A stretch of 63,126 nucleotides of DNA, the filler included, from Atractiella rhizophila (Eukaryota), in assembly GCA_021432655.1 (NCBI GenBank). It is 5 parts of 4 records of this genome, joined end to end, with 100 filler letters (N's around TTAATTAATTAA, not from the genome) between each part and the next. Parts side by side here need not be neighbours in the genome. Positions count along the whole stretch, not along the records: positions 23,429 to 45,427 come from MU271672.1; 4 more parts are not named here. The stretch is one strand, 5' to 3'. Below the pieces are notes generated by a model. It was not told the origin of the DNA. It saw only the letters and a list, made by a program, of their open reading frames with translations, and searched no databases. Each line of letters opens with the position of its first letter. Position 1 is the stretch's first letter. A program made the position numbers and the translations under genes. Of this stretch, positions 29,540-59,244 are shown piece after piece.

Positions 29540-29954
29540 TTTTGAGGCAGCTTGCTCGTGAGAGGAATTGAATTTTCGCACATTTGGAACCGCGCAATGT
29601 GCAGTAGCGAAAGAGAGAAGAAACTGAGCATCCGACGTAGCGCAGCAGAATCGAGACTGGAAACCAACTCGGGAAAGCAGTCTTCAAGTTCTGACCATTC
29701 ATCTCACTGCACATCCGGGTTGTACCGCAGCTTGCCCACACCAGTGCGGCTAAAATTTTCTAGTCGCCTCGTCCTTGGATCTGAAGCAAGCTTCCAGTTT
29801 TTGGTGGTGATGAACAGCTACAAAAAGGTTCACTCTGGAACATGCGGAAGAAGCAACATTCCCACTTCAGTAACACTGCGGCGGGCGGTTGGCGGAACCA
29901 AACCCGAAGTTTGTGTGAAGACAAGGGACATGTTGAAGATGAAGGTCAGCATGA

Positions 29955-30602
29955 AAAAGTCATCCTCACGACTCGAGAGCCAGACGCTTGGTGGAACTCT
30001 TACTACACCACGCGTGCGTTCATTCTATTCTCTTTCCTTCCTTCATACAGAAGATGATGGTCGAACGACTTGAAATGGTAGTGCTGGAACCGTGGTTGTG
30101 GAATAAGGCTGCGAGACTTGCGATGCGTTGGATCCCGGGGATTTTTTGGCAGTCGAAACTGACGGATCAGCTTTTAATTCGCTGGGGAAAGCTATACGGG
30201 TCTCCTATTGGTCCACAAACGATAGTCCGACATTCGGAAGAGGTCAGAAAAAGGTTCGCAATCATCTACATTTCCTACTGTCTCGAACATAATTGAGATG
30301 AGTCCAGAATACCCAAAGAGCGGTTGCTGGAATTTAACGTAAAGCAAGGCTGGGAGCCTTTGTGCAAAGTAAGCAACCGCTCTATAATTCGTCCAAGGCG
30401 CTGAACAGTGTAGTTTCTCGGAAAACCAATCCCTCCTGAACCTTTCCCAAGGGCGAACGACGGAGCGGGGACGAGGAGGATCCTGATGATTGTCAAAACT
30501 TTCGGTCTTGGAATGTGGGCACTTTCGTTTACAGGTGTGGGAATGGCTGTTTGGTGGACTCTGAAGAAGATAAATTGGATAGAAGGAATATCTTCGCAGT
30601 AG
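29955..30602 (+). pseudogene. 5'-truncated diverged duplicate of the Sulfotransfer_4 gene
   Basis: Matches 28890-29530 from KVILTTREPDAWW onward, with scattered substitutions and a diverged last intron; lacks the P-loop exons. Confidence 0.8.
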
Positions 30603-31233
30603 TTCTCAGCAACCTCTTCTTTTGGGCTGTTTGATATTTCTGCCGTATTTAGGACATTTCAACTACTTTCAACCCTCTGTGAATTAATGTGCTTTGACAG
30701 CTAAACTGAATTTCGGTATCAAAGACAGAAGACATGCGGGTTTGCATCATTGCGGCATCAAACTTGATGCCTTGAGGATTGAGCTTGACGCGTCAAGTAG
30801 CAAAACCACATTACTGGCTCACGTTGCGTTTGCTAACAACAATGCCGCTGTTGTCATGCACACACAACATTGGCTCCAAGGAGGCCGCTTCCTCCTTGTT
30901 CATGGAGAGTGACTTCTGAGACTTGGTTTAGTTCCGCCATGAGGAAAGTAATACACATCACGAATACATCACGGCATGTACTCTTGTTACTGACGGTTCC
31001 CACCTAGCCCTTTTCAAATTCGAGACAATGAGAAAACAGCGGAACCGAACTTGTTCAAAAGGACAAGGTCGGAACAAAGGCAAAAGCAAAACATGCGTTT
31101 TTCTACAGAAACGACGGAGCTCTAAGGAGCTGATGGATTGGGATCTGAGCTGATGCGAGTCCAGTTGTGCGTACTCTGTTTGTTAGAAGTGGTGCTAGTC
31201 TCATGAGCCTGCCTCAAAGTTTCCAATTTGAAC

Positions 31234-33103
31234 ATGTCGCGTACACAAGTGCTGCAGCTCAAGCAATTTCTTCTTCAAACCCGCTTCCCTCTCCCAACCG
31301 TCATTCCAGTAACCAACTGCGGCACATCAGGCTACATACCCAAGCGGGTCATTGCATCCCTTCCATATGCAGCTATGCGGGAGCCAGACATGGCTCTGCG
31401 CCTCAGCCAACAACTGTTTGCTTTTTTGGACAGCCCGGACATGACAGATGACTTCCTTGTCCCTGGAGCTGTTGAAAAACTCGCCATGAAGTTTATGGTG
31501 CACACTGAGGACATGACTGAGGATGAACTCCGGCTAGAAGACGATGTTTTGACCAAATACGAACGTCGAGTGATACCAGTCATGAACGACCTTTACAAGA
31601 TTTTCAAAGTGCATGCTAACTCGCCTCTGCTGTATAAAAAGCAGAGTAGTCTCAACGGGTTTTATCCTGATCATGCCATTGTGGCACAACAGAAGATGCT
31701 GACGATGACGGAGGAGAAAGGGCCTTCGGTGTACAAGAAATTCAGAGAGGACATGGACGGGTATGTCGAAGCGAATACCCCTACTGTCTTTGATTTCAGC
31801 AAGACATCGGAAGGCGGACAGTCCATTATTGATAAGGTGCGCGGTTCGAAGATTGCGGTCTCAGTGCGCCGGCTTCTTACCTGTTGATTTTAGTTCTCCT
31901 GTGCATTTTCTGCCACGGAGGCCAAATATGGATGTATACACGACCTGTTCGAGACTGACCTCTCCGAAAAGGTTTCCGTTGAGGGGCGGACGTGTTTGAC
32001 GTTTTCGACTCCTATCGCACTAAATTCCGAATATTACCTTCCATCCATGTTCTGGACATTGTTAGTTCAGTCGCCCCATCTTGGGGATGCCATTTCCCGT
32101 TTTGATCGACAATCCCACCTGGTGGATCGATTTCGAAGTGCGCTCCCTTCGACGAATCCACCTCAACCAGAGAAAGAACTTGGCAGCGGTAGTTCTGTTT
32201 ATGGTCGAATGGCAGATCTTTCTCTTTCTACATCCGGCAAAGGCGATGCTAGCGGCAAAAAGAGGCAAAATGCTTGCGAGAGTCTTCATGGATTCACATT
32301 CTGGGGTAGGCGATCCAAAAATCCAAAAAGCCTTTCTTTTGACCTTGCAAGGGTAATGTTTTAGCCATCATGTCCTCGCTAAAGCTGACCAATGCATAGA
32401 TTCATCATCTACGAATTTTGATCAACTTAAGAAACTTTGTCCTTCAGACCTACGATCTCACTCCCGTCTATGCGGGGACGGTCTTAGGTGGTAACGAGTT
32501 GCCCCCATCACCTCCATCCACGCCGAGCGAGGAACCTCATATTTGTTTGAATTACGAATGCGATATTAGCGACGGAGGCGCATGGGTCTTCAAAGGACAT
32601 CTTCCTGGGACGTCTTTCACCGTCGTTGCAAAGACATTTGATGATAACGTCAAAGCAACGATGCTCCATGAACTATCAATCTATCAGTATCTCGCTCCAC
32701 ACAGCCTCCCATTCGTTCCGGAGGTTTATGGGGTCTGGCAACTTGGGGAAGAGTACCCAATGTATTTTCTCCTGCTTGAGGATGTCGGGCAGCCGGTGGG
32801 GAATTTGTCAAAGCTAACCCAAAGCGACAAGTGCGTTCTTCTTCCATGTGATGGCTGGCCTGGTTCTGAAACCAAACTATCAGGGAAAAGCTCATGCAGA
32901 ACGTGGTGGACCTGCATTCTGTCGGCGTCAAGCATGAGGACATTCATCCTCTCAACGTACTTCGCAGACCTGACGGCCGTCTCGCTCTCATCGATTTCCA
33001 TATGGCGGAAATCGGGCATAAATGCGCAGGGCCGGACGCTTGCTCAGAATTGAGAATATTGAAGACGCAACTTTACCCCTCGGAGAAGAAATACTTGTGT
33101 TAG
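31234..33103 (+). CDS. Fungal protein-kinase-like protein, copy 2, with possible N-terminal PD-(D/E)xK-like domain
   Basis: MSRTQVLQLKQFLLQT start shared with copy 1; YPDHAIV...TEEKGP; kinase motifs VVAKTF, HELSIY, VPEVYG, HSVGVKHEDIHPLN, LIDFH. Confidence 0.78.
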
Positions 33104-33655
33104 AGCCTCAAATGATTGCATATGTGTGTTATATAAGGCTTCCTTTGTTGGATCAGTCTTCAGGTCACATTTGTACATACCACGAGTGACGACGTTCTTA
33201 TCCTTCACTTGTCTGTCTGATGTACAACTGGCAAAGTCGAGTCTTTTTCCTACTAGAGAAGGAGTGAGGATCGTGCATACGAAGCTTGATAGATTCTCTC
33301 CTCGGTTCTTTACACGTGAGGCCGCCCGTTATTTCCGTGATGCGATGGAGTTGGAGATTGAACGAAACGAAGCTTTGCAGATTGAGTATTCGTCTCTATT
33401 ATAAAGGGTATATTACATTGACCAGCTCGAACATGAGTAGGCTGTCACTCGTAGCTTAAGAAACTCGGACAGACCGTGCCAGTTTAAGATTGCTTACACA
33501 CATCGTTGAAGGTGACATATGTCATGAAACCATTTCATAATGTCATTTCAAATTGCGAATTTGCTGACGAAGTGGAGGATCATTGTGTGATCCAACCGAC
33601 ATCAAAATAATTGTCTAAATCGATCCTACGCTACAGTTATTACGAGATAGATATT

Positions 33656-35124
33656 ATGTCAGTTCCAAAAGTTGGAGTAGCGCTGTTAGGAGCAGGCATT
33701 TTCGCGAAGGAGGCGTGAGTGGTCCGATATTTGATCAGCATTTATCTCCTCCAGTTCACAATGGGGAGAGCTGAGTTGGTGTCATAAACTTCGCGGAACT
33801 CTCTACAAGCAAACAGTATTCAAAGATCTCAAAGCATTGAAGCAGAAGCTCTTTCAGTGTTCAACAAGGTTGTTCATTCTGTGAAGTGGTTCTTCAACTC
33901 GTCTACAGATTGCAATCGCGGTCGTTGATGACATCATATTTTGTTGCTGGGAGTGGAACAGAAGGCATGAGAGGAAGAATCTTGGCGATACGGAGACCAA
34001 GCTGTAGCTAACGTATGCGCAAACAGACACGTCCCTGTGCTTCTATCACATGAATCCATCGATTTTCTGGCCGTCTACTCCCGCTCTCACAAGACTGCCT
34101 CAACCATCGTCTCCTCCGTGCCCTTCTCTGAGGTCGAGAAGATCAAGATCTATTCGGACGACTCGACGACAGGCGATACGCTCCCTACCCTCCTCTCACG
34201 CTCCGACATCCATGCCGTCGTCATCGCTCTCCCGATAGTAGTGCAACCAGATTACATTGAAAAGTGCCTCGAAGCTGGGAAGCATGTGTTGTGTGAGAAG
34301 CCTGTGGCGAAGGACATGGCAAGTGCTAGAGAGATCATCAAGATTTACAAGGAGAAATATGAACCCAAAGGACTGCTCTGGGTGACCGCAGAGAACTTTG
34401 GATTCGAGACTGCCATACTGAAAGCGGGAGAAATCGTGAAGAGTGGCAAGCTGGGAACAATCAGGCACTTCTCTTTGGAGCAATATAGCTTTACCCCGAA
34501 GTGTGCGTCCGACTTTCCCAATTCCCATCGCCCATCGCCAATGACGGAATGATAGCATCGAAGTATTACAACACCCCTTGGCGCACGATCCCAGACTACC
34601 AAGGAGGATTTTTGCTTGATGGAGGGGTTCATTCCACCGCCCTCCTTTCTCGCGTTGTGCTTCACTCACCTGTGGTCGAAGTGAGCGCCTACACAGACCT
34701 TTTGCACAAGCACCTCGCGCCGGAGGACTCAATCCGAAGCATCATCAAGTTGGAAGATGGAACTAAGGGGACTTTCAATCTCAGCTTCGGGATGGAGGAG
34801 AAGCCGATCACGAGGCGCTGGCTCACTGTTCTCGGGAGTGAAGGAGCACTCGAGCTTCTGTCACCGTTTGGAACACAAGGTTATAAACTGTCGTTGAGAA
34901 CGAAAGGAAGCGAAGAGGTGGAGGAGAAGGAGTGGAAGAGCGATGGAATCGTGAATGAGATTGGAGAGTGGATCGAAGCCATCAAGAAAGGAAGTAAGAG
35001 CGCTGAGTGGGCTTCAGTCGTCAAGAAGGGCGGACCTGAGTTTGCGTTACTCGATTTATCTATCATCGAGGCATGCTTGAACAGCGGAAAAGATGGAAAG
35101 GTCGTCAAATTGGCTGATCTCTAA
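33656..35124 (+). CDS. Gfo/Idh/MocA-family NAD(P)-dependent oxidoreductase
   Basis: Exon 1 MSVPKVGVALLGAGIFAKEA; AGKHVLCEKPVA; AENF; YYNTPWRTIPDYQGGFLLDGGVH. Introns 33715-34026 and about 34501-34554. Confidence 0.92.
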
Positions 35125-35196
35125 CTTGACCAAATATCAAATATTGTAAACAAATAGTTCTTGAATAGATTTGAAAGAAGAAATGTTGTGTTCACA

Positions 35197-35643
35197 TCAA
35201 TCTTCCCCAACCCCAGCCCCCGAAACAGTTGCCAGATCATCATCATCTGCCTCTTCTCCTTCTTGAATGGTCTCCTCCTTTCTCTTTATCTGATCCACCA
35301 GCTTCTGAACACCTACGTGTACTTCTTCCCCATGATCAAGAGCGAACGTCTGCAGCGCACGCACCCAGCGACCATCGTCTTCTCCTGCTGCGATTTCTAT
35401 GGTGAGTGTCTTTTCGATAGCATGGGGGCTCATCGGCCTGACGGTGGAGGTGGATGAAGGACGAGAAGTTGAAGGTGTTGGTGAGGAAGGGTCATCATGC
35501 TGGAGCGAGGTAGACGTGGAGGGTTTGGGGGTTGTGAGCCTAAAGTTAACGTCATTTCTGCGCTAAAGGGAGGAATAGTAAGAATCTGACAGTTCTGCAT
35601 CCGATGTGTTAAGACTTGTGGAAGACTCCTCGTTATTCATCAT
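35197..35643 (-). CDS. Small hypothetical Ser/Thr- and acid-rich protein
   Basis: ATG at 35643, one putative intron, and an open exon ending ...EEADDDDLATVSGAGVGED*. Confidence 0.4.
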
Positions 35644-36603
35644 TATGGCGAGAACGCAGTGTTAATCTCTAGTAACTGTTGGTGGACTTGCTCACGATAG
35701 ATCGTATTCGAACCGAATTACCACTTGATTCTTAAGGCTATCCTCCCAAGGGCATCGGTTTGCGTTTTCGCACTTCCAAAGGAGGAGGCGCAGACGGGCT
35801 TCGGTTTTTGTTGATGACTACCACGCTCAGCAAAAAGTATTGAGGGGATGAAACGATATGAAATTTGCACCAAGTTGACTCAGGGAATATCTTGGAACAA
35901 AAACACCATCCTAGGTATCGACATTACCAGGTTAACTTTAAGCCCACGAAACGTCCCTGAAGGCAAGGCTGGTCACGTTATCAGCCAATCACCTAATCTG
36001 GATGGCACTCGAACAAAGGACGGCGACGTAACGACTTTCGCAAAGGTTATTTCTTCTTACTCCAATGAAGGAAGCTGCGAAATATCAGGACTCTCGGGAA
36101 GGCTTTGGGGTTCGTGTTATCATGTGATTAGCAAGTTAGGGTCAGGGCTTTCCGCCACAGAATCCTTACCTCTAAAAGCCATCCGTTCTTGGCATGAGTC
36201 ATAAAACGCACTTTTGAGCGTTCATACCACCTTCAGCAGGCACATTGAAACAAAATGAATTACACCATCTTACTGAACATGCTTGCGCCTTTCTGAATGC
36301 GCGAGGAAATTTTATTCTGAAAGGGGTAGAAAAATGTGTTGCATACTGGACTCGAACCCTCACAAGAGTCACAGTAGGGTTCAAGGGGCCATGCCCCTTG
36401 CGAGTGGGTTGGGGGGCCTGAGGGACGAAGGCCTCTGACACACTTGTCGCCCTTAAAAATTCGACCGTACCAGCGATCAGTCAATCTCCTCCATCATTTT
36501 TCCTTCAGTTTTACGTGTTCGACTCCTGCGTCTCAGCACACCACAACAAATTGCTCGACCAGTCCCCCGAATTAACCAAAGACTTTTTAACGACAGATCA
36601 AGA

Positions 36604-38243
36604 ATGGATACTCGAACTTGCTACAACTGCAATCAACGTAGGTTTCGTTGGACTCCAGCTCCAGGTTATGATTACCAAGACCCGAATCCACTGGACAAAT
36701 GATTGTCATCGGCTTCGGTGGAAGCAATCGATTCCTGGGTTGAAAGAACGAAAATGGGAGAAGTGGCAACAACCATCGGGAGGTGGGAGTGTCAGCTTTT
36801 TCCAGTTTCTTTCTCGCGAAGACGAAGACGATCGTCCCGTCTTTACTCCTCATGGGAGATTTAATGGGTTTTAATTTTTTTTTCGTTCGTCCGGTCGCTT
36901 TACGTCACTGCCCACATGGACGGACGTGAACGACTTGTGGAAGTTTTTCTGAACGAAGGCTTTGAAGGAGTCGAGTTTTCTTTGTTTCTAGATCGAAGAC
37001 GTTTAATAGTTTTTTAAGTGTTGGGATGGGGAGCGAGTGGGTGACGATCGCTGTCAATACTCTAGCTTAACCAATGACCAACCTTTTTCTCAGCCACAAT
37101 TGCGGGTAATGCGTATCTTTGAACCTCAACCTTGTAAACTTGTGAACTTGAACTTAGCCTTAGCCTTAAGTGTTGTGTGATGGGGACGGAACTGACGAGG
37201 GGTGTTGGGTGTGCGATGCGATGTGTGGACGATTGACGGTGACGAATGACGGTATGAATGACGGGGACGATCGATTGTGACTTGCGGATGGGGTGTCGTG
37301 TGTGATGTTGTGGATTGATGGCTGCCGATGTGGTGAACTGTGGATGAACTGACCTGCAGCTGGCCACACCGCCGCTTNNNNNNNNNNNNNNNNNNNNNNN
37401 NNNNNNNNNNNNNNNNNNNNNNNNNNNNNNNNNNNNNNNNNNNNNNNNNNNNNNNNNNNNNNNNNNNNNNNNNNNNNNNNNNNNNNNNNNNNNNNNNNNN
37501 NNNNNNNNNNNNNNNNNNNNNNNNNNNNNNNNNNNNNNNNNNNNNNNNNNNNNNNNNNNNNNNNNNNNNNNNNNNNNNNNNNNNNNNNNNNNNNNNNNNN
37601 NNNNNNNNGCCTGTCAGAAGAAGGCAAAGAGCTAATAGCATGCTGATGTAGAGGGACTGCCCTGCTGGCGGTAACGCTGGAGGATACGGAGGCGGATATG
37701 GCGGCGGCAGTGCTGGAGCTTGCTACAAGGTGTGTTTTCAGTTATCCTGCTCGAGCTGTGGGACTCACGACAAATGGGGCACAGTGTGGAAAGCCAGGAC
37801 ATATCAGCAGAAACTGCACATCTGGAGGTGGTGGAGGATACGGTGGTGGAGGATATGGAGGCCAGAAGACGTGCTACGTTCGTGTTCTGCCTACTTCTTT
37901 TTGTGCCGCTAAAAATGAATTAGACTTGCGGTGGTGTTGGTCATCTCAGCAGGGACTGCGTCCAGTCGGCCAAGTGCTTTAACTGTGGACAAGACGGCCA
38001 TATTAGCGTGAGTACCCTTGCGGTCCATTGCTTCATTGCTACTACAGTCACGGTTTTGGTTATGGGTTCTGACATGTGGTTATTGGTGATAGAGGGATTG
38101 CACCTCTGGACCTCAGCAAAAGGCCTGCTACACCTGCGGTCAATCTGGTTAGTTTATCCGCATGATCTTGGATCAATAACTGAGTGATATGCCATATAGG
38201 TCATCTCTCCCGTGACTGCCCTCAAGCCGGTGGAAGCATGTAA
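36604..38243 (+). CDS. GIS2: CNBP/Gis2/Byr3-type CCHC zinc-knuckle RNA-binding protein
   Basis: Exon 1 MDTRTCYNCNQ splices across 36638-37359 to PGHTAA. Later knuckles: CYK/CGKPGHISRNC, CY/TCGGVGHLSRDC, CFNCGQDGHIS/RDC, CYTCGQS/GHLSRDC, with GGYGG linkers. Part lies in an N-gap. Confidence 0.88.
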
Positions 38244-38677
38244 TCCCTCGAACATCGCGAGAGAATCATCTTCCTTTTTTCTCTACTCTGATTCATGGGA
38301 GCTTATGTGTCCACAAACAAGCGTTTCCTTTTCCTCATTCTCCTCCCATGCCAAAATTTGTTCACAACATTTTACTCCATAAAATGATGCCTTGACCATG
38401 GCCATGTATCAACTGTTACCTTACCACTTCTTGTGCTTGTAATGAGATGGAGGATGGGTTGGATAAGGCGATTATGGTTCCTCCTTTGAGCTCCTTTGAG
38501 TTATGAGATTATCCACTGGTTGCAGTTGTGAGGTGTAAACCCTTCACTGACAGGTTCGGAGAGCAAACAAGGTCTTGATTGACCTGCTTGTTGGCTTAAC
38601 CCTGTCTTCCAGCAACTTCATTCTCCTCCACGTCTCCTTTATCCTCACAAGTGATCTCTCCCATCCTGACAACTTGA

Positions 38678-40436
38678 ATGGTCGCAACGATTCAAGCGGC
38701 TCGTCGTGACGCGGGTCAGCTTATTACTAGGCAAGATCCGAGCACTGTCTCTGGATGCCTTCTTCTTATCCTGCCTCATCCTCATGTAGATTTATGGGCT
38801 CTGTAGATACCAACCTCGACCGCACTCATCAATCTCATCACCCCAGTAGATCACCCCACTACAGTGCAGCTCTCCATTCTTCCCTCTTTCTTGTCTTGCC
38901 TACCTTCGTCATTCCACACTCTCCGGATCTCTTTTGGGTTACCTCGACATGTCAACCAACTTCAGTTTCGACGGTCGAGATTGTCCTTTTTCTCCGTTAG
39001 ACTTAGCGACGACGGAGTTGAAAACGATGGTGTAGTGAATCTTTGGATCATTTTCGAGGAGAAAAGTTTCACAGTATCATTTGAGGAGGCCGAATGGCAA
39101 GCACCGATCGATTTGAAGTATGCCTCAAAGCTCTTCACCTGCACCTTCCCTCTCCTCCCAGAAAATCCCACACAGCCCATCTTCACTTCCATTGCTCAAT
39201 ATTCAGACGCCTCAAACAACCCTGTCCCTATCAGCCATGACGCATCATCACCCCTCGCCCCTCGCGGCGCTGTGATCGTCCAACTGTCGTCCTTCCCAAC
39301 TCCAGCACCGTGCCATATCTCAAGCCTGCCTGTGGAGCTTCTCTGCCTTATGTTCGATTTTCTCGATGACCCTGGTGAATGCTTCAGGATCTCCAACGTC
39401 TGCCAGCTCTGGAAGTTTGCATCTGTTCCTTTTTGGAAGGAGCCTGATTCTTTGAAAGAGAAGTATGCTCGTTTGCGACTCTATCCTTATGCCGGACGCC
39501 TATGGACTCGCTTGCGGCTTGAAGGGGATACAAATGTTGCGATGGTGAAGGAGATCATCGCTGGCTCACCGAATGTCACAGAAGTCTATGTGGATGCACT
39601 GTGGAATGCAGAGGAGAAAATGGTGGTGTTGAATGCAATCGAAGCCTTGGAAACGGTGGAAATCATAAGCTTTCAGACCTTACCGTTGGAAGAAGTGGAG
39701 CAACAAGGACGTGGTGAACTTTATGCGGAGGACGAGAGGAAGGATCAAGAAGCTTGTCGCTTTCTTTGTGGAAGACTTTTTTTCCTCCTCGGCCCCTTCA
39801 GCATCAGCAGACCTTCAATTACCTCCTGGTCTAACATTTCTTGACCTTCGACTTTACCCGCCTATCCCATCACTCTCGCTCCCAACCAGCCTCCTGCATC
39901 TGGCTCTCGTCAAAATGTGTCCCCTCCCTCCGTCTATCTCAACCTCTCCTCTTCCCCCATATCTAGAATATGTCGACATCAAACTTGCACCTTTCTATGC
40001 TGGTGGAGAGTTCTCCATTCTCCTTACTCCGCTCGACTTTTCGCAGCTCACAAACCTCACCGAACTCAAACTCGACGGCGGCGGGGAAACGTCAAATCTC
40101 GTTCACCCCAAGTTCTTCGGCACTCTCCAAAGTGCAAAGGCAATAAAAACAATCGGCCTGACGTATTGTGTGGTGGAATGGACGGGCTTCCCAGACTTCA
40201 TTTGCTGGTTCTTTGGCGATCGCCGGGAGACAGTCGAGGTGAGAGATGCGGCTGAAGAGTATGGATATGAAGATTCAGAAGAGAGGTCTTTACAGATAGT
40301 TTTATTGTTTGGAGAGTGGGATGAGGCGCAGATAGAGAACTCCAGGAGGACAATGAAAGACGTTGCCGCAAGACGGTTTGAGATGGGATCTGCAGGGGTT
40401 TGGGAGTCTGGCCAACTGCAACACGATTTTCTTTGA
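38678..40436 (+). CDS. F-box / LRR(RNI)-like protein, copy 2, with one frameshift near 39680
   Basis: ORFs 38864-39844 and 39711-40436 together align with 4143-5835 (ISSLPVELLCLMFDFL, YARLRLYP.AGRLW, LDGGGETSNLV, LLFGEWDE). Confidence 0.72.
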
Positions 40437-41976
40437 CAGTCAGTCGGAAAAAAACGACCGGAAGATTTCATACCCTCATATCGCAACGGTTAACCACAAT
40501 TGGAGAACTGCCGGAAACGATGGAACTCATGAGGTGATCTAGGTATATGTTACTAACAGCTCACCCTTACCCATAATGGTCAGAGCACACCTATCATGAC
40601 GGTAATTGTAGAATTGTCTTAATCTCCTAATCTTCTACATTAGATTAATAGGTCTGGTTATGGCACAAGCTGATGTCTAGGCAATCGTAATATTGATTGA
40701 ATAAAGATTCACTGGCACCGATATTTCTCCCACACCTCACAGGCTTATAGTTGTGATCCACGAGAAAAGCTCCGTATTCAACCTCAATTGAACAGGTCGA
40801 ATGATCTTCCAGAGCAGCGAGAAACTTCAAGTCTGACCCGAACATTGGCACATCGTCCAATTCCATCGACATGAATACCTTCGCTTCTAAAGTCATTGCG
40901 CAGATCTGAGCTGGTTCAGAGTGGATGGCAAATGTTCGCACACTTTAAGATGCATTTGAACGAGTCGAAGAGCTCTTGATGTGTCGAATCGAGCTATGTC
41001 AAGACGGCGGCCAATCGTGGAAGGAAGATGATGGAGTGAAATCAAGCTTTCTTTATGACCTTCAAAGCATTACTGTCCTTCCGCACGGCATGCTTGACAA
41101 ATATTCGGTTGGTTGAACGCTCAGTTGAGAGAGAAAGGCAAAAGAGTGGTGTTTCACAGGGAGGGACAGTCTTTGGTGTGTCTTCTGTACTTTCTTGAGT
41201 GTTTGAATTTGAGCATGATTCGACCAGAGTTTGGGGGTGGCTCCTGAGCGTGATTGAAGGGACATAAAACGCATGCCGCATGCTTGTTTCCTGTATAAAA
41301 TAATATTAGAATCAGCATATAGTTTTGGTATGGAGTACTTGCTCCCATGTCCCTCTTCACACACGATCAAACTGTCGATCGTGTCAACAACAGTCCTGTA
41401 GTTTCGTTTGAGGTGAGATGGCCGCTCGAATCTGAATACAATTGAATCATCAGCAAGCTACAGCCAGCGAAGACAAGATCCAGAGGTGATGTGGAGTGCT
41501 ATGATCATCAGCATTGGACATGCATGAGGCCACACATTCAGTTCTTGATACAGTCTAGAACGGACGGTGCTGTCTATCATACTATTCAACTTGCATGCAC
41601 AACACCGCGAAAAGAAAAAAAAACAACAGATCAAAAGATCACGTGATATTCTGATCGCTAATCTCCTGACATCCGACAGACCGAAGTCCTTCCCACCGTC
41701 TCTTCAAAAATCGTCTTCCATCAGTTGCAGAGCAGCCCCCTCTATCACCAGCCTCTCATCTAGTCAGTATCAGTAAGTGCTATCACCTTTGCAGATCCTC
41801 AACTGATTTTTATTTTTCCTTTTAGCCCGTGACGCGGATTCTCAGCGAAAGACGTCACAATCCAGCTTTTTTAGGAGCTGCATCTCATCACCTCCCACTT
41901 CATCCGATAATCCAAATACACATCAGCTGAAGTTACGCAATACCCAGCCAGACAGCTACATAGGCAGCGACGCAAC

Positions 41977-44900
41977 ATGCCCACCAACTACTCTTCTCAG
42001 TCCCTCGAAGACCTCATCGCAGCCTATGGGGAGTCTCAAAACACAGTCTGGATCGAAGACAAGTTCCAAGTCTGGAGACACCCTGAACTGGGCATTCCGA
42101 TCGGCTACGCGATCTCCAAAGACTACTGCATAACATGGTGCAATCCGCTCTGCAAGCCCGAAGACTACCCGGCCGCCACCAGCGCCTTCGTGGACTGGTG
42201 CACGAAGGAGAAGGGATTGAAACCGATCTGGGGATGTCTTAACGAACCGATGTCACAAGTCCTCGGAGGCTCTCCTCACAATTGGAGCGTCCTCAGTTGT
42301 ATCCAGGACGATCGACTTGATCCGACAAAGGTCGATCCCCTCAATGATAATAAAGCCGGAGTGAGGAGGCCGGCGAAGCATGCGGAGAGTGAGGGAGTGA
42401 GCGTTGTGAGGGAACCGGAGGCGCCGACTGGGAAGATTAGGGAAGGAATCGATGAGTGTTGTTTGGAGTGGAAGAGGGGGAGGAAGGGAGTTCAAGTCCA
42501 CACATCGAACCTCGAGCCGTGGAACGATACCGCCCACAGAGTCTATTATACTGCGAGGAGGAGCGTAGGCGACGACCCGAACAAGATCGTGGGATTCATG
42601 TTCATGACCAAACTCAGGGAGGGATATGTCATCAAGGACTGTCTCGAGTATCCTAAGCTTGCACCCAAGGGAACTAGCGAGCTCCTCATTCTCACAGCCA
42701 TCAAGGATCTCGGGAACAGGGGCGTCGACCAGCTCACGTTTGGTCCCTCTGCCGCCAAACAGATGACGGTCGTAGCCAACCTCAAGGGAATCAGAGTCAA
42801 AGGTCTCCAGGCGACGTACAACACGTTCGTCCTCCCTCCTTCCCGCTCTTTCCTGATTTGATAGTCGATTGGGTACACAGGATCGCTGATAAGATGGGTT
42901 TGATCAATCGCGGTTCTTTCCGTGCAAAATTTTCAACAACAGTTCGTCATTTCTCTATCGAGGGTTAAGGAAACTGACGCACAACTCATAGCCCAAACCC
43001 CTCTACGTCGCTTTCCCCAAAGGTGGAATGGGCTCTAAAGGCGTCTTCGCCCTCATGGCGGTTCTGAAATCCGTGCGTGCTCCCTCCCACCTTCCTATCT
43101 TGCCTCCTCGTGTTTAAATCCAACCAACTGAGAGCGGTGCTACGGGATGGCTTAGGATCCGAAAGAAGATGCGGAAAGGGCTGCGAAGAAGAATCAACAG
43201 TACGGAATTGGAGGCGAGGGAGGAGATGAGTCGCCTCCTGTCTTTGGGAAAGTCTCTAGCGATTTGCCCAATCATGGAATGATCAGTCCTTTCTCGTTCG
43301 TCTCCTTCACTCTTCCCCATCCCGTGCATCTTAGTAGCTGAACCTTGGCGCTCTGGTCACAGTGTGCCCGCTCTACATGTCGTCAGGGATAGGATGAGCA
43401 GGATCAGCAATTCGATCAGGAGGAAACCTAACGGGACAGTTAAGTCTAAGCCTTCGTCTAAAGTAGCGTGGGTCCCACCTCCTTCCTTCAAGAGTTTGGA
43501 GTGGATTGATGATGGCCGAAATTTTTTTGGTTTAGGAGCGGGACGGCGACCCCGAAAGAGGGGAAGGTGGCTAAGAACCAGTTGAAGAAGAAGAGAAGGG
43601 CAGAGCGGAAAGCAGAGAAGAAAAAGAAGAGGCAGGACGCTTTGAAGGAGAAGCTTGGAGATAAGTACGTGCCTCCTGGACAGGAACCTGGTATGCCCGA
43701 AGACGTCAAGAACGAGGAGGTTCGTCCTCCCACCTGTATGAGGACTGAAGTTGAGTCTTGGGTAAAGGACTTCTCCAAAGGCAAATACGGGTTCTTGCCC
43801 TCTAATCTCAGCTTTGCTGAGACACCTTCTGTCGGGAACAAGAGGTATAAGATCGAAGAGATGACGGAGGAGAACGACGGGAGGAGAGTCGTGTTCCGTG
43901 CACGGTTGGAGCACTTCCGCATCCTTGGTTCGCATTTCCTCCGTCGCGGTTCTCATTCATGAACTCTGATGATGATGCTCGATTCTGCGATCAGGATCGA
44001 AGATGGCCTTCATCATCCTCCGCCAGAGGACGTCCACCATCCAAGCCGTTCTTAAATACGAACCTCCGATGGTGAGCAAGAAGATGGTCCGGTGGATAAG
44101 CCACATTCCTCTCGAATCTATCGTTCTCGTAGACGGCATCCTAGGAAAGACGGATAAAGAAATCAAAACGACAACCATCAAACACATGGAGATTCGTGTG
44201 GGCTATGGTTCGTTCCTTCCCCTTTCTCTGAGCGCACGCTGAGAAAGTTTGCTAGTTGCACGTCATCGCAAAGGCATCTATGAGACCCGTCTTCGATGTG
44301 GAAGACGCAGCTAGGCCAACGGCGGAGACGAATAGGGTGGGTCTGTTGTCTCTCCTCCCGGTTGAAAGGTGGGAGGGTATGTTTGCAGCTACTAACAATG
44401 GCCTCCGTAGATTGATGCTCGCTTCCACTAAGATCAAGCTCGAGACGCGCCTGGATAATCGAGTGTTGGATTTGANNNNNNNNNNNNNNNNNNNNNNNNN
44501 NNNNNNNNNNNNNNNNNNNNNNNNNNNNNNNNNNNNNNNNNNNNNNNNNNNNNNNNNNNNNNNNNNNNNNNNNNNNNNNNNNNNNNNNNNNNNNNNNNNN
44601 NNNNNNNNNNNNNNNNNNNNNNNNNNNNTGATGTAGACCATTGAGAACCAAGCCATCTTCCGCATCAATTCCGGAGTCGTGAAGCTCTTCAGAACTTTCC
44701 TCGATGGAAAGGACTTCACGGAGATTCATACTCCAAAATTGCAGTTCGCAGCTACGGAGAGCGGAGCGAGTGTGTTCAAAGTCCAATATTTTAAGAGTGC
44801 GTTTTCCCTTCGTTCTTGATTCTGGTTGAGATCATACCTAACGTCCATCTCCGTATAAAGCGACGGCGTTCTTGGCTCAGTCCCCCCAACTTCACAAGCA

Positions 44901-45427
44901 GATGTGTATTGCAGCGGATATGGAGCGAGTGTACGAGATCGGCCCAGGTATGCCTCCTCATTCTTCCTTCTAACTTCATTTAAAGGATATGCATTTAGTC
45001 TTCCGAGCGGAGGATTCAAATACCCATCGCCACCTTACCGAGTTCACTGGCCTCGACCTTGAGATGGCATTCGAAGAGCATTATCACGAAGTCATGAATC
45101 TGGTTGACACCATGCTCAAGTTCATCTTTTCCGGCTTGCGGGAGCAATATAAGCGCGATATCGAAATCGTTCGGGAGCAATTCCCATCCGACGACTTCGT
45201 CTGGCTAGATGAGACCCTTCGCCTCACTTACCCCGAAGCCGTAGCTTTGTTGAGGGAGCATGGACATGAGATTGGGGATTACGAGGATATGAGGTTCTTT
45301 TCTCCTTCACAGAGCTCGAGCAGTTGTTGATGACTTCTCGTTGCGATAGCACGGAGAAGGAGAGAGCACTTGGTGGGATTGTCAGGGAGAAGTATAAGAC
45401 CGACTACTACATCATCGACAAGTTCCC
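41977..45427 (+). CDS. DUF2156 aminoacyl-tRNA transferase fused N-terminally to aspartyl-tRNA synthetase (ErdS-like, reversed domain order); 3' end in gap
   Basis: DUF2156/ErdS-type motifs [33 protein letters not shown]...[35 protein letters not shown]. Frame continues through introns 43073-43155, 43296-43362 and 43468-43535 into AspRS: FIILRQ (OB fold), [55 protein letters not shown]. Confidence 0.85.
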
Positions 45428-47130
45428 NNNNNNNNNNNNNNNNNNNNNNNNNNNNNNNNNNNNNNNNNNNNTTAATTAATTAANNNNNNNNNNNNNNNNN
45501 NNNNNNNNNNNNNNNNNNNNNNNNNNNAAGCTGGGCAGATCCAGAGTAGATTGGCAGTAACTCCCAACCTTTCAATCCCATGTAGCTCCCGAATTCGCAT
45601 GCAGATGAGTTCTCTTTTGCAACGTCTTCGTAACTGAAGACAGAGACTTCCATTTGTGATGGTGATGAGGGAACAAGGAGCACTTTACAAGTTCAGTAGA
45701 TGGCATGCTTCGAACTTCTGGTCATACAGCAACAATCCTCACTCCAGAGGATATATTTTCTTAATGTGCTGGATTCGGATCTCTAGAATACTCTAAAGCT
45801 GAATGGACGCCGTGATGCACATTATAAATGGTACGAGTGCTGTCAAGTGTCATTCCCAGTCGTTCTCCTCTTTATATTGTTCGGCTTCGTGATCTCACCA
45901 TAGACGTGTCGATGATACGCTTCTTTACAGTCTAAGAACATCTGAAGCAGCAAATACCCGAAGACAACAGTAGCAGATTAGATGATGAACGCTTTACGGG
46001 GCCAATATTCTATCTTATCAACGCTCATTCTACTGGCGATGAGACAACGTTGCAGATTCATAAGGAGTGAATAAGCCACCTGAGAACGGTCTAACTCACT
46101 TGACAACTCGTTCGATCAAAAGAGTAAGTGAGGAAATGACGTGTGTTCTCAGCCTTGTTCCTTTGTTTCTAGAATTTGCCTAGAATGTAGCCCTGTCATT
46201 CTTCCTTCTCACTGAATATTCAGACTAATACAATTTCTCATTCGATGTTGTTCACGTTGTCGGTTGCCCTACTACTATCATCCAAAAACAGAGTGGAGGG
46301 AGGGTTAAAGGTTAAACACTAAACAGTAGATTATTTCCACAATGTAATACCCCAAGAAGGTTCGCCTTATAGATATTCACCCAGAGTTTACCATCACGCA
46401 CTCGTCCCAGGTGAGAATGAATGCCGTGGGAGTGGCTGCACATAATGAGTACATTTGTGGCATTCACTGATGTGGCATTCATGCTGAGTAATGTCTATGC
46501 AAAGAAACGAAGTTTTTCGAATGCACTCGTTTCCAGCGAATACTCTCCTCGTGAAGATATTTCAGTATCTGCGTCGACTTCTTTCTACTGGACCCGGGAT
46601 TGCGAGCAATAGCAATTTATGTAGTGGTTGTCGTTCAAACCTTTCCTATACATACCGTCCTGTATTTCTGAGATATGACCCTCAAACTTGGGTGAAATTC
46701 ACTGCAACAGGAACAGTTATGCGCCAATGTTCCCATGCAACGCGTTCGAGCAGAGCTTACTCATAATAAAAACCAGTGGCATTGTATTAATGCTTCGATA
46801 CACAGCTACGAACCCAAGGAATGGGGAGTGATGCTACAACGATTCTTGAATCGGACTTGACCTCTTGAGAAAAACAGGAAACATTGTAAGCAGAGAACAA
46901 AAACAAGGGGTGAAAGCGAGAAGTATTAATATTTTAGACATGAATAAAATCATGCAATGGATGATTTAATGGCTGATGACAATCCGGAAGCGTGATGTGA
47001 GTGAACCAAAAGCATCGCTACCACTGGAATGGAAACTAAAAAACAAAAGTCTGAAAACTGTCAGGACAACAATTTGAACAAAGAAAGATATGAGATTGAC
47101 AAATGAATTCAGCTGAAATCCAAGCAACCT

Positions 47131-47514
47131 TTAATCGAGTTCCATATCCGCATCCATGTCAGTCGGCGGTACTTCATTCGATTCGTTTTCAAGATTCTCC
47201 ATCCACTTTTGCAAATGTAAACCCGTCCTCTCCATCGGGAGAAGCTCCAACAATTCCTCCATCAATCCATCTGGTTCGCGACAAATCGCTCCTCGAACCT
47301 CACTGGCATCTCGAAGTTCGCTGAGCGTGGATATGATGGGGTGCTGTAATAGCTCGTCGGCAGAAGTCCTGTCTTCGGGAAGGAAAGCAAGGAGCTGGGT
47401 AAGAAAGGCATAGAGTTGCGGTGAGAGGAAATGAAATTCGACTTCCTCGAGATTGGCTCGACGAAGTTTCTGCCATGAAGTCCCATTTTGAGGTAGAACA
47501 AGATTTGTAGCTGT
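47131..47514 (-). pseudogene. C-terminal fragment of a Wee1/Swe1-like kinase, fused in frame to Copia pol
   Basis: TATNLVLPQNGTSWQKLR matches the Wee1-family LP-x-NG-x-x-WQ-x-LR motif; PEDRTSADELLQHP is kinase subdomain XI. Confidence 0.7.
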
Positions 47515-50500
47515 TGTGGTCTGCTTCTTTGAGGACCAAGATATCGCACCCCCCGACACAAGGTACACGTAGCCAGAGATGGCTTTGCGTCCGTTTGCCT
47601 CGCTGGAGTTCCCGTCAGCGTCGCAGTACCCGACAACTTTGGTGAGCCTCCCTCCGTCACCCCCGTAAACAAGCGCCCGTTCCTTCGTCGCTTTGAGGTA
47701 GCGGAAGATGCGTTGGACCGCTGTCCAATGCGATTGATTTGGCTTTGAAGAAAATTGACTGACAGTTTGGACCGCAAACGCGATGTCGGGACGCGTCCCC
47801 ATCACGGCGTACATGAGCGATCCAACTGCTCCTTGGTAGAGTTTTTCGTCGACGAGAGAATCGCTGTCGCTGCTCGGCATCAGCTTTGTGTTCGGATCGA
47901 TTGGAATAAATGAAGGTTTTGCGTTCTCCATGTGATAGCGCTTGAGCATGGTGTCGACGTAATTTGCATGCGAAAGTGCAATCGTGCCCTTCTCCTTGTC
48001 TCGTAGGATTTGGATTCCGAGCAGGAGGTTGCCCTGCCCTTGGTCTGTGACCTCGAAGGCACGATGCAACTCCTCCTTGACTGTTGCAAGCTCGGTTCTG
48101 TCGTTCGAGACAAGCACGATGTCGTCAACCCAGACTAAGAGGATCGTGACGGTGCCTCCCGTCCTGCGAATGTAGACGCAGTAGTCTGCTGTTGATCTTT
48201 TGAACCCGAGGCCCTCGAGGACCTTGTTGAGCCTGATGTTCCAGATCCTTCCGGCTTGCTTCAAGCCGTACAGCCCTTTGACGAGCCTGTAGACGCGTCC
48301 CGTCCCATCGTCGAATCCGGGAGGCTGCCTCAGGTAAATCTCCAGATCTTCTTCCAGATCTCCATTGAGATACGCCCCGACGACGTCCATCAAATGAATT
48401 TCCCATCCCTGAGCCGCCGCAAGTGCCACGATAGTGCGCAAGGATTCCAGTCTTGCGACAGGTGAGAACGTCTGGTTGAAGTCTTGTCCTGCGATTTGCA
48501 GGAATCCCTGCGCCACCAATCGAGCCTTGTGCCTCGCCACCTCTCCGCGCTCGTTCCTCTTCCGAACAAACACCCATTTGGAGCCTACGGCCTTCCTGCC
48601 GGGTGGTAACTCGACCAAGTCTTTCTTCCACGTCCCGAACTTCTGCAACTGACTGATTTCTCCTTCCATGGCCTTCTCCCAGTCTCTCCAGTCGTTTGCT
48701 TCTTTCGCATCGTCGTAGGTCTGAGGATTGTCGTCGGAGAGGGAGATTTGTGAGAGGAACGCGAGCGCAAAGTTGCTGGCGTTCGCAAAGGGTACGGGGT
48801 CGTTCATCAGCGGCACAGTGGACGAAGATGGTGCTCGACTCTTTGGTCGATGCTTGCCGGTGTGCAAGGTATAGTAGTCGACCGTCGCTCTTGGACGTTT
48901 TCCTAATACGGTCGCAGAGGCTGGCGCAGGCGGGTCTGGATCTGGCACGGTTTCGGTAGATGGAGTAATCGGTTCGGTGGGATGTGGTAATGGGGTTTCT
49001 GGGTCTTTGGGAGCAGGTGACTCGCTCCCACTCTTCTCCTCTGTTCTTTTCTTGGTCGGAGCGGGCTGGACAGAAGGAATGGTGACCGATTCTTCATCCT
49101 GTCCGAATTTGAAGTTTCGCGAGATGAGAACTCGCTGTGTCTTTGGATTATAGTATCGAATTGCCTTTGGTCCATCTTCATACCCCACAAAGATGACCTT
49201 TACTGATTTGGGGTCCAGTTTTGGCTTCTGCCTCTCGTCTATCACCCATACGTCCCGTCCGAATTCCTGGAGCTCGCCCACAACCGGCTTCTCCTTAGAC
49301 CATGCCTCGTGAGGCGTCTTGCCGTCCAGTGCTCGCGTGAGCGCTCTGTTTCGTAGGTAAGCGGCATGCTTCACTGCCTCCGCCCAGAGCCGTCCTGATA
49401 GTTTCCTAGCAAAAAGCATCGCCCTTGCCAGTTCCACCAGTGTCCTGTTCATGCGCTCCGCCACGCCCAATTGCTGATGCGAGTACGGCGCAGTTACCTC
49501 GAGCTCGATTCCTTTTTCGACCTCTAACCAATCGCGCACCTTCTGCCCAATAAACTCGCTGCCTTGATCAACGCGAACCTTCTTGGGAACATGTCCGTAT
49601 TTTCTTTCGACGAGATTGACATGCGACTGAATTTTCGACAGCACCTGGTCCTTTGTCTTCATGAACGAAACCGTGGTCCGACGCGTGCAGTCGTCGGTGA
49701 ATGAGATGTAGTACCGCGAGTTGCCAATCGAAGGGACTTGTGAGGGTCCCCAGACGTCGGAGTAGGTGAGTTCCCCAGGCTGCTCGGCTCGTGTTGACGC
49801 TTCGTGTGGATAGGGGTTATGCGCGTGTTTTGCTTGGATGCAGGCTTCACAAACCGAAGGTGAGCTTGTCGTATCTACATCCATACCGTCGACTAATCCC
49901 TTCTTGTGCAGCTCTTCCAGCGTCGACATGCCGATGTGACCGAATGCGCGGTGCCACTTGTCCCAAGTCTTTGCTGGTTTCTCTGCCACCGCCAAAGCCG
50001 TCGCCTTGCTTGTATCCAAGTCCAACTGGTAAAGCCTCCCCCTCTTCGTGCCTTGAGCAAGTAACTGACGGTTCTTGCTCCAGAGTTTAATCTTGCCATG
50101 CCCAAATGTTGCTTCCCCACCCGCATCATCGAGTCGTCCAACGGAAAGGAGTGAATTCGGTGCATCAGGTGCATAGAGCGTATCCTTGAGCGTCAGGGTC
50201 TTTGACTGACCGTTGACAAGGACGTGGAGCGTGTACGGTCCTCGGAGCGTCGCTGGAATTGGCTCCTTCGAGAGTCCGTGTATTGAGAAGTTTGAGAGAG
50301 GTACGCACGCTTCCTTCGTAAAGCCATCCATACTGTTGCTGATATGCGAGGTGGTGCCTGAATCGCCGAGCCATACCCTGCGCGAGAGTCTTGCGTCGAA
50401 ATGCTCGGTTCCCTGGAAGGCGGAGTCGCCGGCTTTATCTTTCGCTTGGTGAGCCTTCTCCCCTCTTCCCCTGCCTTTCTGATTCTTGCCAGGTCTTTGG

Positions 50501-51368
50501 CCTTCCTTCCCACCTCCTGCAGACCAGCAGTCCGCCTTGAAGTGGCCCTTCTTACCGCAGTTGAAACACTCAATGCCGGATTTATCAGGCTTGCTCCCAC
50601 CGCTGTGCTGGCCGGTGAGCCTCTTCCCCTTCCCATACATTGCGGTTTCTAACTCGCCAGATTTCTCTTTCCTCCTCCTCTCTTCTTCGGTTAGAAGCGA
50701 CGAAAGTTCATGCGAAGTGATGGTGAGTTTGTTCGAGTTCGCACCGAAGTAGGCTGATGTGAAGTTGTCCCAGGAATCCGGGAGCGATGCGATAAGGAGA
50801 AAACTGAAGTCTTGATCACTGAGCGTGTCGCCCATTAAGGTAAGTTCTTCCTGTATCTGCCTGAAGTTTGAGATGTGCTCAACCATTGAGAAGCCTTCTT
50901 CGGCCTTTGTCTTGTACAGCCGTCTTCGTGTTGCCAGGATCCCTTGGATGCCTCTCGCCTCTTTCACCGCACACAACTGCGTCCACATCTGCGCCGCCGT
51001 CTTTGCCCCCGTCAGGTGTACAAGCTCGCCATCCGAAATCGTTAGCTCGAAACGGGTCTGCGCCTTCCTATCCTTGACATCCCATGCCTCAAGGTCATCG
51101 AGGTTCGTGACCGTTTCCACCCCATCGGCATCTCTGACTTTGATAGGAACCGGTCTATCTTTCTTCGATCCTGTTACGTAGTCGAGCAGGTCGAGTTCTC
51201 GCAAGACTGCGGTGATGCGTCGTTTGTACGCGACCCAGTTCTTTGCCTTGAGTGGCTCGATCTTGAATGCACCGAGGTGGTCTTCCGACATGGTGGCTGT
51301 TAGCGGTGGATTGGTGAGGTGTTTTCTTTGTGTGTGTGAATGGTATTGATCTTGCTGGTCAGGCGTTT

Positions 51369-51380
51369 GGGCTCATAACC
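51369..51380 (-). promoter_or_regulatory. Primer-binding site complementary to the initiator tRNA-Met anticodon stem-loop (half-tRNA priming)
   Basis: GGTTATGAGCCC directly after the LTR; complementary to GGGCUCAUAACC of tRNA-iMet, as in Ty5 and Drosophila copia. Confidence 0.88.
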
Positions 51381-59144: not shown

Positions 59145-59244
59145 NNNNNNNNNNNNNNNNNNNNNNNNNNNNNNNNNNNNNNNNNNNNTTAATTAATTAA
59201 NNNNNNNNNNNNNNNNNNNNNNNNNNNNNNNNNNNNNNNNNNNN

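Follow-up and report, generated by a model that had tools for sequence, protein, structure and literature searches.

A spliced, reversed-order DUF2156–AspRS fusion gene of Atractiella rhizophila, a probable ErdS-like lipid aspartyl-transferase

Ergosteryl-3beta-O-L-aspartate synthase, named ErdS (A. fumigatus AFUA_1g02570; PDB 9w9e, 9w9f and 9w9g; Yakobov 2020, PMC7334510; Murayama 2026, PMC13219428), carries a DUF2156 transferase domain at the C-terminus of an aspartyl-tRNA synthetase (AspRS), and this is the sole architecture described in the parts of PMC7334510, PMC8913301 and PMC13219428 available to us. According to the cryo-EM mechanism of 2026, in the available text of PMC13219428, the tRNA works as a swinging arm and each transferase serves, in trans, the tRNA of the partner subunit, while the N-terminal helix of ErdS, with its xSKxxLKKxx motif, clamps the tRNA elbow. 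Free-standing ErgS, the ergosteryl-glycine synthase, is absent from Basidiomycota except in one species, as far as the accessible part of PMC8913301 goes. Here we describe a gene of the root-associated basidiomycete Atractiella rhizophila (Atractiellomycetes, Pucciniomycotina) in which a DUF2156 domain and an AspRS are joined in the opposite order. The gene lies on the + strand of a window of 63,126 nucleotides, by which we mean the whole stretch of DNA analysed, made of five parts of the assembly GCA_021432655.1 joined end to end; it belongs to the part taken from MU271672.1 (positions 23,429 to 45,427), starts at the ATG at 41977 and continues past 45427, where the scaffold ends inside the gene. 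A sequence-only reading had proposed that three phase-compatible GT-AG introns join an N-terminal DUF2156 domain to a cytosolic-type AspRS in one spliced frame, and we find that this is a real, expressed and spliced reversed-order DUF2156–AspRS fusion gene.

The three linking introns lie exactly where they had been placed (Table 1) and are phase-compatible, and two extra introns interrupt the DUF2156 part itself. Once all five are taken out, the frame check gives an open frame of 543 codons from the ATG into AspRS. If any of the linking introns is kept, computed read-through meets a stop after 14, 15 or 39 codons, and in the case of the first one the stop is a TAA at 43115-43117 after 14 extra codons, which would end a free-standing DUF2156 product. 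By our own arithmetic, (61/64)^82 x 1/3, the chance that a linker of 82 codons stays open and lands in the AspRS frame is about 0.007. The fused gene model is already public as the GenBank protein KAH8928548.1 (P0001 hereafter; 972 aa, "aspartyl-tRNA synthetase [Atractiella rhizophila]"), with the same junctions and with its first 282 residues, the product of exon 1, 100% identical to ours, and in the literature searched it does not stand under a description as reversed ErdS.

The splicing is seen in transcripts. Positions 41700-44470 were compared with the contigs of two assembled runs, X15 (organism label F, 2013) and X16 (organism label G, 2020), which we take as RNA because their contigs are spliced, the run type not being on record. 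The contigs of both runs lack each of the five introns from 42825 to 43535, and splicing is also seen at 43718-43765 and 43927-43993 and, in an X15 contig, at 41773-41825; the introns at 43718-43765 and 41773-41825 are additions to the sequence-only reading. Among the pieces listed for this interval in X15 and X16, none retains an intron. One X15 contig (record 2, 1210 nt, at a single depth of 1059.8) begins inside the DUF2156 domain at 42458 and reaches, in spliced form, the OB anticodon-binding domain at 44106. In X16, record 4 covers 41826 to 43440, also spliced, and after a break in the assembly record 5 takes up at 43564 and extends 1758 nt, by our own arithmetic about 140 nt more than the remaining coding sequence (CDS) needs. 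Contigs and window differ at nine coding positions, every one of them a third codon position and synonymous when read in the fused frame; one of the nine, a single-nucleotide polymorphism (SNP) at 43251 in exon 4, lies in the linker. The removal of the three linking introns is thus borne out by the contigs of two runs, and one of these contigs leads from DUF2156 into the anticodon-binding domain. An assembly chimera was also considered and is ruled out, since the junctions recur in both RNA runs and in another public assembly.

Pfam searches of eight exon pieces gave a family in four of them, LPG_synthase_C/DUF2156 (5.9e-11), tRNA_anti-codon (2.6e-08) and tRNA-synt_2 (2.4e-10 and 8.6e-13), and no family in the other four, namely the 27-aa last exon of the DUF2156 part, the two linker exons and the Lys-rich exon. 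In P0001 the order reads LPG_synthase_C at residues 22-310, tRNA_anti-codon at 525-594 and tRNA-synt_2 at 647-966. The PF09924 match reaches 42.4 bits on exon 1 and 39.9 bits on P0001 against a gathering cut-off of 27.5, and PF01336 (OB) and PF00152 (synthetase core) were matched in the AspRS half. All the families named by the sequence-only reading are present, and frame check, Pfam on P0001 and RNA contigs agree in putting DUF2156 on the N-terminal side.

This order is opposite to that of the characterised ErdS, as had been claimed. A HMMER search with the DUF2156 part against 1.84 billion representatives returned 303 matches at E<=0.001, the best 150 of which are listed, without P0001. Among the 294 proteins gathered, 39 have both domains (partly members of the same clusters, and hence not 39 independent cases); 38 of the 39 read AspRS→DUF2156, and only P0001 is reversed. 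A word-index search with residues 200-620, sensitive to close relatives only, found no second reversed fusion, returning P0001 and three canonical AspRS of Puccinia graminis (35% of the query). Metagenome scans gave 37 pattern matches with the single protein and 52 with a five-row alignment, with no relative confirmed in either. A reversed order was not found in the literature searched, in which the supplementary architecture figures and distribution tables of PMC7334510 may list unusual architectures; the word 'Atractiella' is not mentioned in the available text of PMC7334510, PMC8913301 or PMC13219428, nor is 'domain order' in that of PMC7334510 or PMC13219428.

The public protein also shows how the gene ends. 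By tblastn, residues 1-866 of P0001 map to the window, with residues 590-866 on the catalytic core exons, where the QSPQ motif and motif 2 are encoded; motif 3 lies beyond the scaffold end, as do the last 106 residues, which are found nowhere else in the window. The borders of these core exons come from GT..AG sites and P0001, the RNA contigs covering only the part upstream. The C-terminus of P0001, ...FPRDPKRLEP, coincides in position with that of P0199, the canonical AspRS of this fungus described below, so that a conventional C-terminal DUF2156 hidden past 45427, which the sequence-only reading had held against itself, is ruled out. P0001 reads 13 residues (VGLLSPSRLKGGR) from the intron at 44337-44410, opposite a gap in P0199; since this intron is spliced out in RNA, the RNA-supported protein has 959 aa. 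Compared with RNA, the window holds one surplus nucleotide in each of two homopolymers, GGG at 44200-44202 (GG in RNA) and CC at 44425-44426 (C in RNA). These are probably assembly errors, each of which would break the AspRS frame, and the GenBank protein keeps the RNA frame.

In the transferase half, residues were mapped on A. fumigatus ErdS (9w9f/g) and compared across 25 proteins, 14 of them conventional ErdS. The nine CCA-pocket and catalytic residues W785, R789, K790, G791, Q793, H795, F913, R914 and K916 of ErdS are all identical, corresponding to W165, R169, K170, G171, Q173, H175, F296, R297 and K299 of the fusion, the first six encoded in CDS exon 1 (aligned to chains 9w9e/f/g). According to the accessible part of PMC13219428, mutation of eight of the nine (all but R914) costs activity, and the roles proposed there are that of general base for H795 and, for R914, stabilisation of the negative charge as it develops.

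Among the best 150 of the 303 matches, the closest one is a free-standing protein, KAH8119712.1 of Phellopilus nigrolimitatus (P0005, 355 aa; 244.8 bits, 42-46% identity), which aligns through residue 328 and ends two residues after the MAVLKS position, where P0011 and P0017 end too. The DUF2156 half pairs with P0005 in the quick tree (95) and in the careful tree (97/91). A clade of all 15 conventional ErdS transferase domains (96/88) excludes this half, which stays within the same wider group as ErdS (84/69), the free-standing proteins of Jaminaea, P0017 and P0011 branching between the two. The Pucciniomycotina DUF2156 proteins named here are four, three free-standing (Pseudohyphozyma, Rhodotorula sphaerocarpa and Microbotryomycetes sp. 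JL201) and this fusion; none of these four gathered proteins is a conventional ErdS. Bacterial DUF2156 matches, about 22-29% identical, served as the outgroup in the tree. As a separate observation, a clade of free-standing basidiomycete DUF2156 proteins (P0014, P0023, P0034, P0019, P0031 and P0054; 100/96) has Ala at the H795 position.

The AspRS half has intact QSPQ, motif 2 and motif 3 (GAGLGLER) in P0001, and a Lys-rich helix with AKNQLKKK that aligns to the N-terminal helix of ErdS. Leaving P0001 aside, its best 120 relatives of 7877 scored are all AspRS without PF09924, mostly canonical fungal ones, the exceptions being two Entrophospora and three plant proteins. Identity of the AspRS half is 53-60% with canonical AspRS of basidiomycetes and mucoromycotes versus 41-48% with the AspRS of ErdS, and its bit score is 543 with yeast AspRS (1asy) versus 497 with the corresponding part of A. 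fumigatus ErdS. The second, housekeeping-type AspRS that had been expected in this species does exist; it is P0199, of 543 aa, 58% identical to the AspRS half over 500 residues, and the fused AspRS as the sole AspRS of Atractiella is accordingly ruled out. In the trees, the clade of 14 ErdS AspRS domains excludes the AspRS half, with a Shimodaira–Hasegawa-like approximate likelihood ratio (SH-aLRT) support of 99 in the quick tree and 100/99 in the careful one, and the AspRS half has a terminal branch of 0.72-0.79 versus 0.41-0.44 for P0199. When the ErdS rows are omitted, the AspRS half pairs with the Atractiella own AspRS (85/83) within a Pucciniomycotina clade (95/95). On the side of ErdS itself, its AspRS clade groups with canonical AspRS of Pucciniomycotina (97/98) and not outside basidiomycete AspRS, in a tree without ascomycete canonical AspRS; this grouping may be long-branch attraction, or may bear on the source of the ErdS AspRS paralogue.

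Between both halves lies a linker of residues 331-412. It had been described as charged and of about 90 aa; the linker is indeed there, but it has 82 aa, with an abundance of S, P, K and G that the word charged does not fully describe. Its G+C content at third codon positions (GC3), 0.51, is below that of the coding parts on either side (0.66 and 0.69) and equal to the GC of the introns (0.51). In the AlphaFold2 (AF2) model the linker has a predicted confidence (pLDDT) of 23-37 and almost no secondary structure, and residues 425-452, downstream of it, are predicted as a helix. At residue 388 (43394) an in-frame ATG stands near the canonical AspRS start, residue 60 of P0199 aligning with residue 474, and is a candidate ancestral or alternative start of AspRS.

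We consider it fairly probable that this gene encodes an independently fused, ErdS-like, Asp-tRNA-dependent lipid aspartyl-transferase, with a sterol as the probable acceptor, where the two activities, the Asp donor, the sterol acceptor and the history of the fusion are inferred. The product of about 959-972 aa would comprise the DUF2156/aminoacyl-tRNA-transferase (residues 1-330), the 82-aa linker and a complete cytosolic class IIb AspRS, itself made of the Lys-rich tRNA-binding helix, the OB anticodon-binding domain and the catalytic core. In this proposal tRNA-Asp, gripped by the N-terminal helix, would be charged by the AspRS dimer; the transferase on its tether would then pick up the aspartyl group at the CCA end and form an ester with a hydroxyl of a membrane lipid, for which the 3-beta-OH of ergosterol, or of a sterol related to it, is the likeliest candidate. 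A flexible stretch of about 90 residues would tie the transferase to the N-terminal helix of AspRS, and not to the AspRS C-terminus; the transferase could act in cis or in trans, and the tRNA hand-off may have a different geometry, as the sequence-only reading had supposed.

As to its origin, the sequence-only reading had left both an independent fusion and a rearrangement in play, and we favour an independent fusion because the DUF2156 half pairs with a free-standing protein and both halves lie outside the ErdS clades. A free-standing DUF2156 gene would have stood directly upstream of a duplicated DPS1-type AspRS, new splice sites would then have joined both genes by taking out the stop codon along with the DNA between them, and the former untranslated DNA would have become the linker. 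We read the history of the fusion this way because the domain end matches that of free-standing relatives, the GC3 of the linker is intron-like and the ATG at residue 388 is near the AspRS start. More tentatively, and with a confidence somewhat short of even, we suggest that fungal aminoacyl-tRNA transferase and AspRS were fused twice, independently and in opposite orientations, the Atractiella enzyme being a convergent 'inverse ErdS' with its transferase on a long tether from the tRNA-clamping helix.

Several observations weigh against this interpretation, and some of them touch the gene structure itself. Contigs are blind to transcript ends, may merge overlapping transcripts and may drop rare variants, and the raw poly(A)/cDNA runs X20 and X22, with 0 reads on the stretch, carry no information on transcript ends or levels. 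In X16, contig depth goes up around 43374-43652, from 9.1 on the DUF2156 side to 20.6 on the AspRS side, a difference that could come from an extra AspRS-only transcript, for instance from the ATG at 43394, or from 3' bias. One could then think of two neighbouring genes with separate main products, a DUF2156 protein ending at the TAA inside the first linking intron and an AspRS beginning at that same ATG, the fused form being a minor conjoined transcript or a contig artefact. Such a view would accommodate the break of the X16 assembly between the halves, the linker without codon bias, the nearness of the ATG to the canonical start and the fact that keeping the first linking intron gives the C-terminal boundary of the free-standing relatives plus 14 residues; in addition, a contig over two genes is no proof of a single transcript. 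However, all the joints listed in X15 and X16 are of the spliced form, one X15 contig covers both sides at one depth, three introns keep the 82-codon linker in the AspRS frame against the small chance calculated above, the single linker SNP is synonymous, and an independent public annotation arrived at the same fused model, so we hold two separate main products to be decidedly improbable.

Other points against the proposed enzyme concern its ancestry and its substrate. In the approximately unbiased (AU) test, a clade of the AspRS half with the 14 ErdS AspRS domains is not rejected (delta lnL 1.07, p 0.395); the AspRS half falls into a set without internal resolution (97/98), together with the ErdS clade, the Microbotryomycetes AspRS and the canonical AspRS of Atractiella; only three diagnostic columns separate ErdS from canonical AspRS, the fusion having two in the canonical and one in the ErdS state; and the AspRS trees are without ascomycete canonical AspRS. 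The gene could then be a true ErdS orthologue whose halves were swapped by rearrangement of an ancestral AspRS→DUF2156 gene, in keeping also with the place of the DUF2156 half in the wider ErdS group and with its general-base His, which is missing from the second free-standing basidiomycete clade. Against such a swap, both halves are outside the crown ErdS clades, the nearest DUF2156 relative is free-standing, the intervening Jaminaea, P0017 and P0011 would demand several independent losses of AspRS, the AspRS half keeps its canonical C-terminus where P0199 has it, and the linker resembles recruited non-coding DNA, which together leave the swap unlikely in our judgement, the trees favouring an independent fusion even with the AspRS half as a possible sister of ErdS. 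With regard to substrate, the sequence-only reading had called the transferase motifs ErdS-type, which holds for the nine CCA-pocket and catalytic residues but only in part for the sterol pocket. Of the 16 sterol-pocket residues listed in PMC13219428, seven are identical (Y637, T643, W645, N677, C728, W802 and K838), three conservative and six changed (S644V, Q836V, E798N, E712P, T641Q and S642N). Conventional ErdS has Ser at 644 in 13/14 and Gln at 836 in 14/14, the fusion having Val at both, and in the available text of PMC13219428 the substitutions S644A and Q836R strongly reduce or abolish the activity of A. fumigatus ErdS. The alpha(+) helix residues R749, K750, R752 and R753 become R131, P132, K134 and H135, so that only R131 and K134 are kept, with an extra R130, in a region of low pLDDT, the AF2 model, built on a 32-row alignment, is weak as a whole with a mean pLDDT of 64.5, no PF07859 gene (ErdH-type alpha/beta-hydrolase, whose gene erdH is a divergent neighbour in the ErdS system) was found in 75 of the 78 open reading frames (ORFs) of at least 75 aa at 23429-41976, over 18.5 kb upstream (the other three overlap the gene's own start, and the downstream side is off the scaffold), and both the Asp donor and the lipid acceptor are deduced from the fusion and the residues alone. 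A real fusion might therefore aspartylate another lipid, a sterol derivative or another acceptor, given its different acceptor pocket; the nearest free-standing relatives are similar at 644/836 (Phellopilus T/A, Jaminaea V/V), and the accessible part of PMC8913301 (JBC 2022) states that DUF2156 substrate specificity is not predictable from consensus sequences. Nevertheless, the general-base His, the Arg of the R914 position and the CCA pocket are intact, the seven pocket residues named above are identical, and a section heading of PMC13219428 calls the sterol aspartylation of ErdS 'highly promiscuous', so that pocket changes need not shift the substrate class; a product other than ergosteryl-aspartate seems to us rather unlikely.

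The remaining features of the window are collected with those of the gene in Table 1. The joins at 13163-13262, 23329-23428, 45428-45527 and 59145-59244 consist each of 44 N, TTAATTAATTAA and 44 N; since this is filler with stop-codon linkers between scaffolds, sequence past 45527 need not adjoin the gene. Plain N gaps are found at 26974-27826, 37378-37608 and 44476-44628. On a different scaffold piece, 47134-51372 of the - strand holds an open frame of 1413 aa with copia-type gag, zinc knuckle, integrase and RVT_2, apparently an intact Ty1/copia long terminal repeat (LTR) retrotransposon polyprotein.

Table 1. Features of the fusion gene and of its upstream surroundings, in window coordinates.
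Feature	Position	Strand	Evidence or remark
RNA12	25333-25611	-	Pfam on ORF fragments
Sulfotransfer_4, two or three exons	28651-30054	+	Pfam on ORF fragments
Kinase-like fragment	32400-33100	+	Pfam on ORF fragments
GFO/IDH/MocA oxidoreductase	33971-35121	+	Pfam on ORF fragments
CCHC zinc-knuckle protein	37647-38184	+	Pfam on ORF fragments
F-box-like protein, nearest upstream gene	38807-39841	+	Pfam on ORF fragments
Intron of the 5' untranslated region, 53 nt, GT..AG	41773..41825	+	Joint 41772->41826 in X15 contig; transcript start upstream of 41772
CDS exon 1: ATG and most of DUF2156/ATT domain (GNAT I, alpha(+) helix, GNAT II)	41977..42824	+	Pfam LPG_synthase_C 5.9e-11
Intron, 56 nt, GTTCGT..AG	42825..42880	+	Joint 42824->42881 in X15 and X16 contigs; frame check
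CDS exon 2: F296, R297, K299 (F913, R914, K916 of A. fumigatus ErdS)	42881..42941	+	Frame, RNA contigs, alignment
Intron, 50 nt, GTTCGT..AG	42942..42991	+	Joint 42941->42992 in X15 and X16
CDS exon 3: end of DUF2156 domain, ...MAVLKS, residue 330	42992..43072	+	End point of free-standing relatives
Linking intron 1, 83 nt, GTGCGT..AG	43073..43155	+	Joint 43072->43156 in X15 and X16
CDS exon 4: first linker exon	43156..43295	+	In spliced contigs; without Pfam family
Linking intron 2, 67 nt, GTTCGT..AG	43296..43362	+	Joint 43295->43363 in X15 and X16
CDS exon 5: second linker exon, in-frame ATG 43394 (residue 388)	43363..43467	+	RNA contigs
Linking intron 3, 68 nt, GTGGGT..AG	43468..43535	+	Joint 43467->43536 in X15 (1 contig) and X16 (2 contigs)
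CDS exon 6: Lys-rich N-terminal extension of AspRS	43536..43717	+	Aligned to N-terminal domain of A. fumigatus ErdS
In-frame intron, 48 nt	43718..43765	+	Joint 43717->43766 in X15 and X16; missing from P0001
CDS exon 7: AspRS, before and at start of OB domain	43766..43926	+	RNA contigs, tblastn of P0001
Intron	43927-43993	+	Skipped in RNA contigs
CDS exon 8: OB-fold anticodon-binding domain	43994..44207	+	Pfam tRNA_anti-codon 2.6e-08; RNA joints
CDS exon 9	44256..44336	+	X16 record 5 pieces
Intron, 74 nt, GT..AG	44337..44410	+	Joint 44336->44426, 14 letters between, in RNA
CDS exon 10, up to 153-N gap	44411..44475	+	RNA contigs
AspRS catalytic core exons 44637-44796, 44861-44947, 44999-45293, 45350-45427	44637..45427	+	Pfam tRNA-synt_2 2.4e-10, 8.6e-13

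The reversed fusion, known from a single species so far, would be an example of a recent gene fusion in which splicing disposes of a stop codon and of the DNA between two genes, and its reversed modules on a flexible linker are a natural test of which features of the architecture are needed for channelling. If our proposal is true, channelling of Asp-tRNA to lipid would be independent of the ErdS architecture, and the Val residues at the S644 and Q836 positions would mean that the product may be a different aspartylated lipid. The fusion links the unstudied free-standing basidiomycete DUF2156 proteins to AspRS and would be, on the same proviso, a Rosetta-stone hint that Asp-tRNA is the donor for these uncharacterised proteins.

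In comparison with ErdS, the Atractiella protein shares a class IIb AspRS and a DUF2156/dGNAT-alpha(+) transferase in one polypeptide, the nine CCA-pocket and catalytic residues, a Lys-rich AspRS helix with its AKNQLKKK version of xSKxxLKKxx, and the presence of a separate canonical AspRS in the organism. In contrast, its order is reversed, with an 82-aa unstructured linker between the domains, both halves lie outside the ErdS clades, Val occupies the S644 and Q836 positions, the AspRS half is nearer to yeast AspRS than to that of ErdS, and no PF07859 neighbour was found upstream in the ORFs scanned. The free-standing protein of Phellopilus has the same domain boundaries, its DUF2156 at the N-terminus and non-ErdS residues at 644/836 as well, whereas the free-standing basidiomycete proteins are without AspRS and end two residues past the MAVLKS position. 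With the DPS1-type cytosolic AspRS (P0199; yeast 1asy/1eov) the fusion has in common all the Pfam domains of the latter and, with P0199, the C-terminus, and it differs by a 412-residue N-terminal addition of DUF2156 and linker and by a longer terminal branch. ErgS of Ascomycota is also a fungal aminoacyl-tRNA-dependent DUF2156 sterol aminoacyl-transferase, but, as described in the accessible part of PMC8913301, it is unfused, unlike the Atractiella protein, relies on a separate GlyRS for its Gly-tRNA and shows about 20% identity to the transferase domain of ErdS. Finally, the bacterial MprF and aminoacyl-phosphatidylglycerol synthases have PF09924 and the same tRNA-dependent transfer chemistry, with the difference that their transferase comes after a membrane flippase domain and that they modify glycerolipids.

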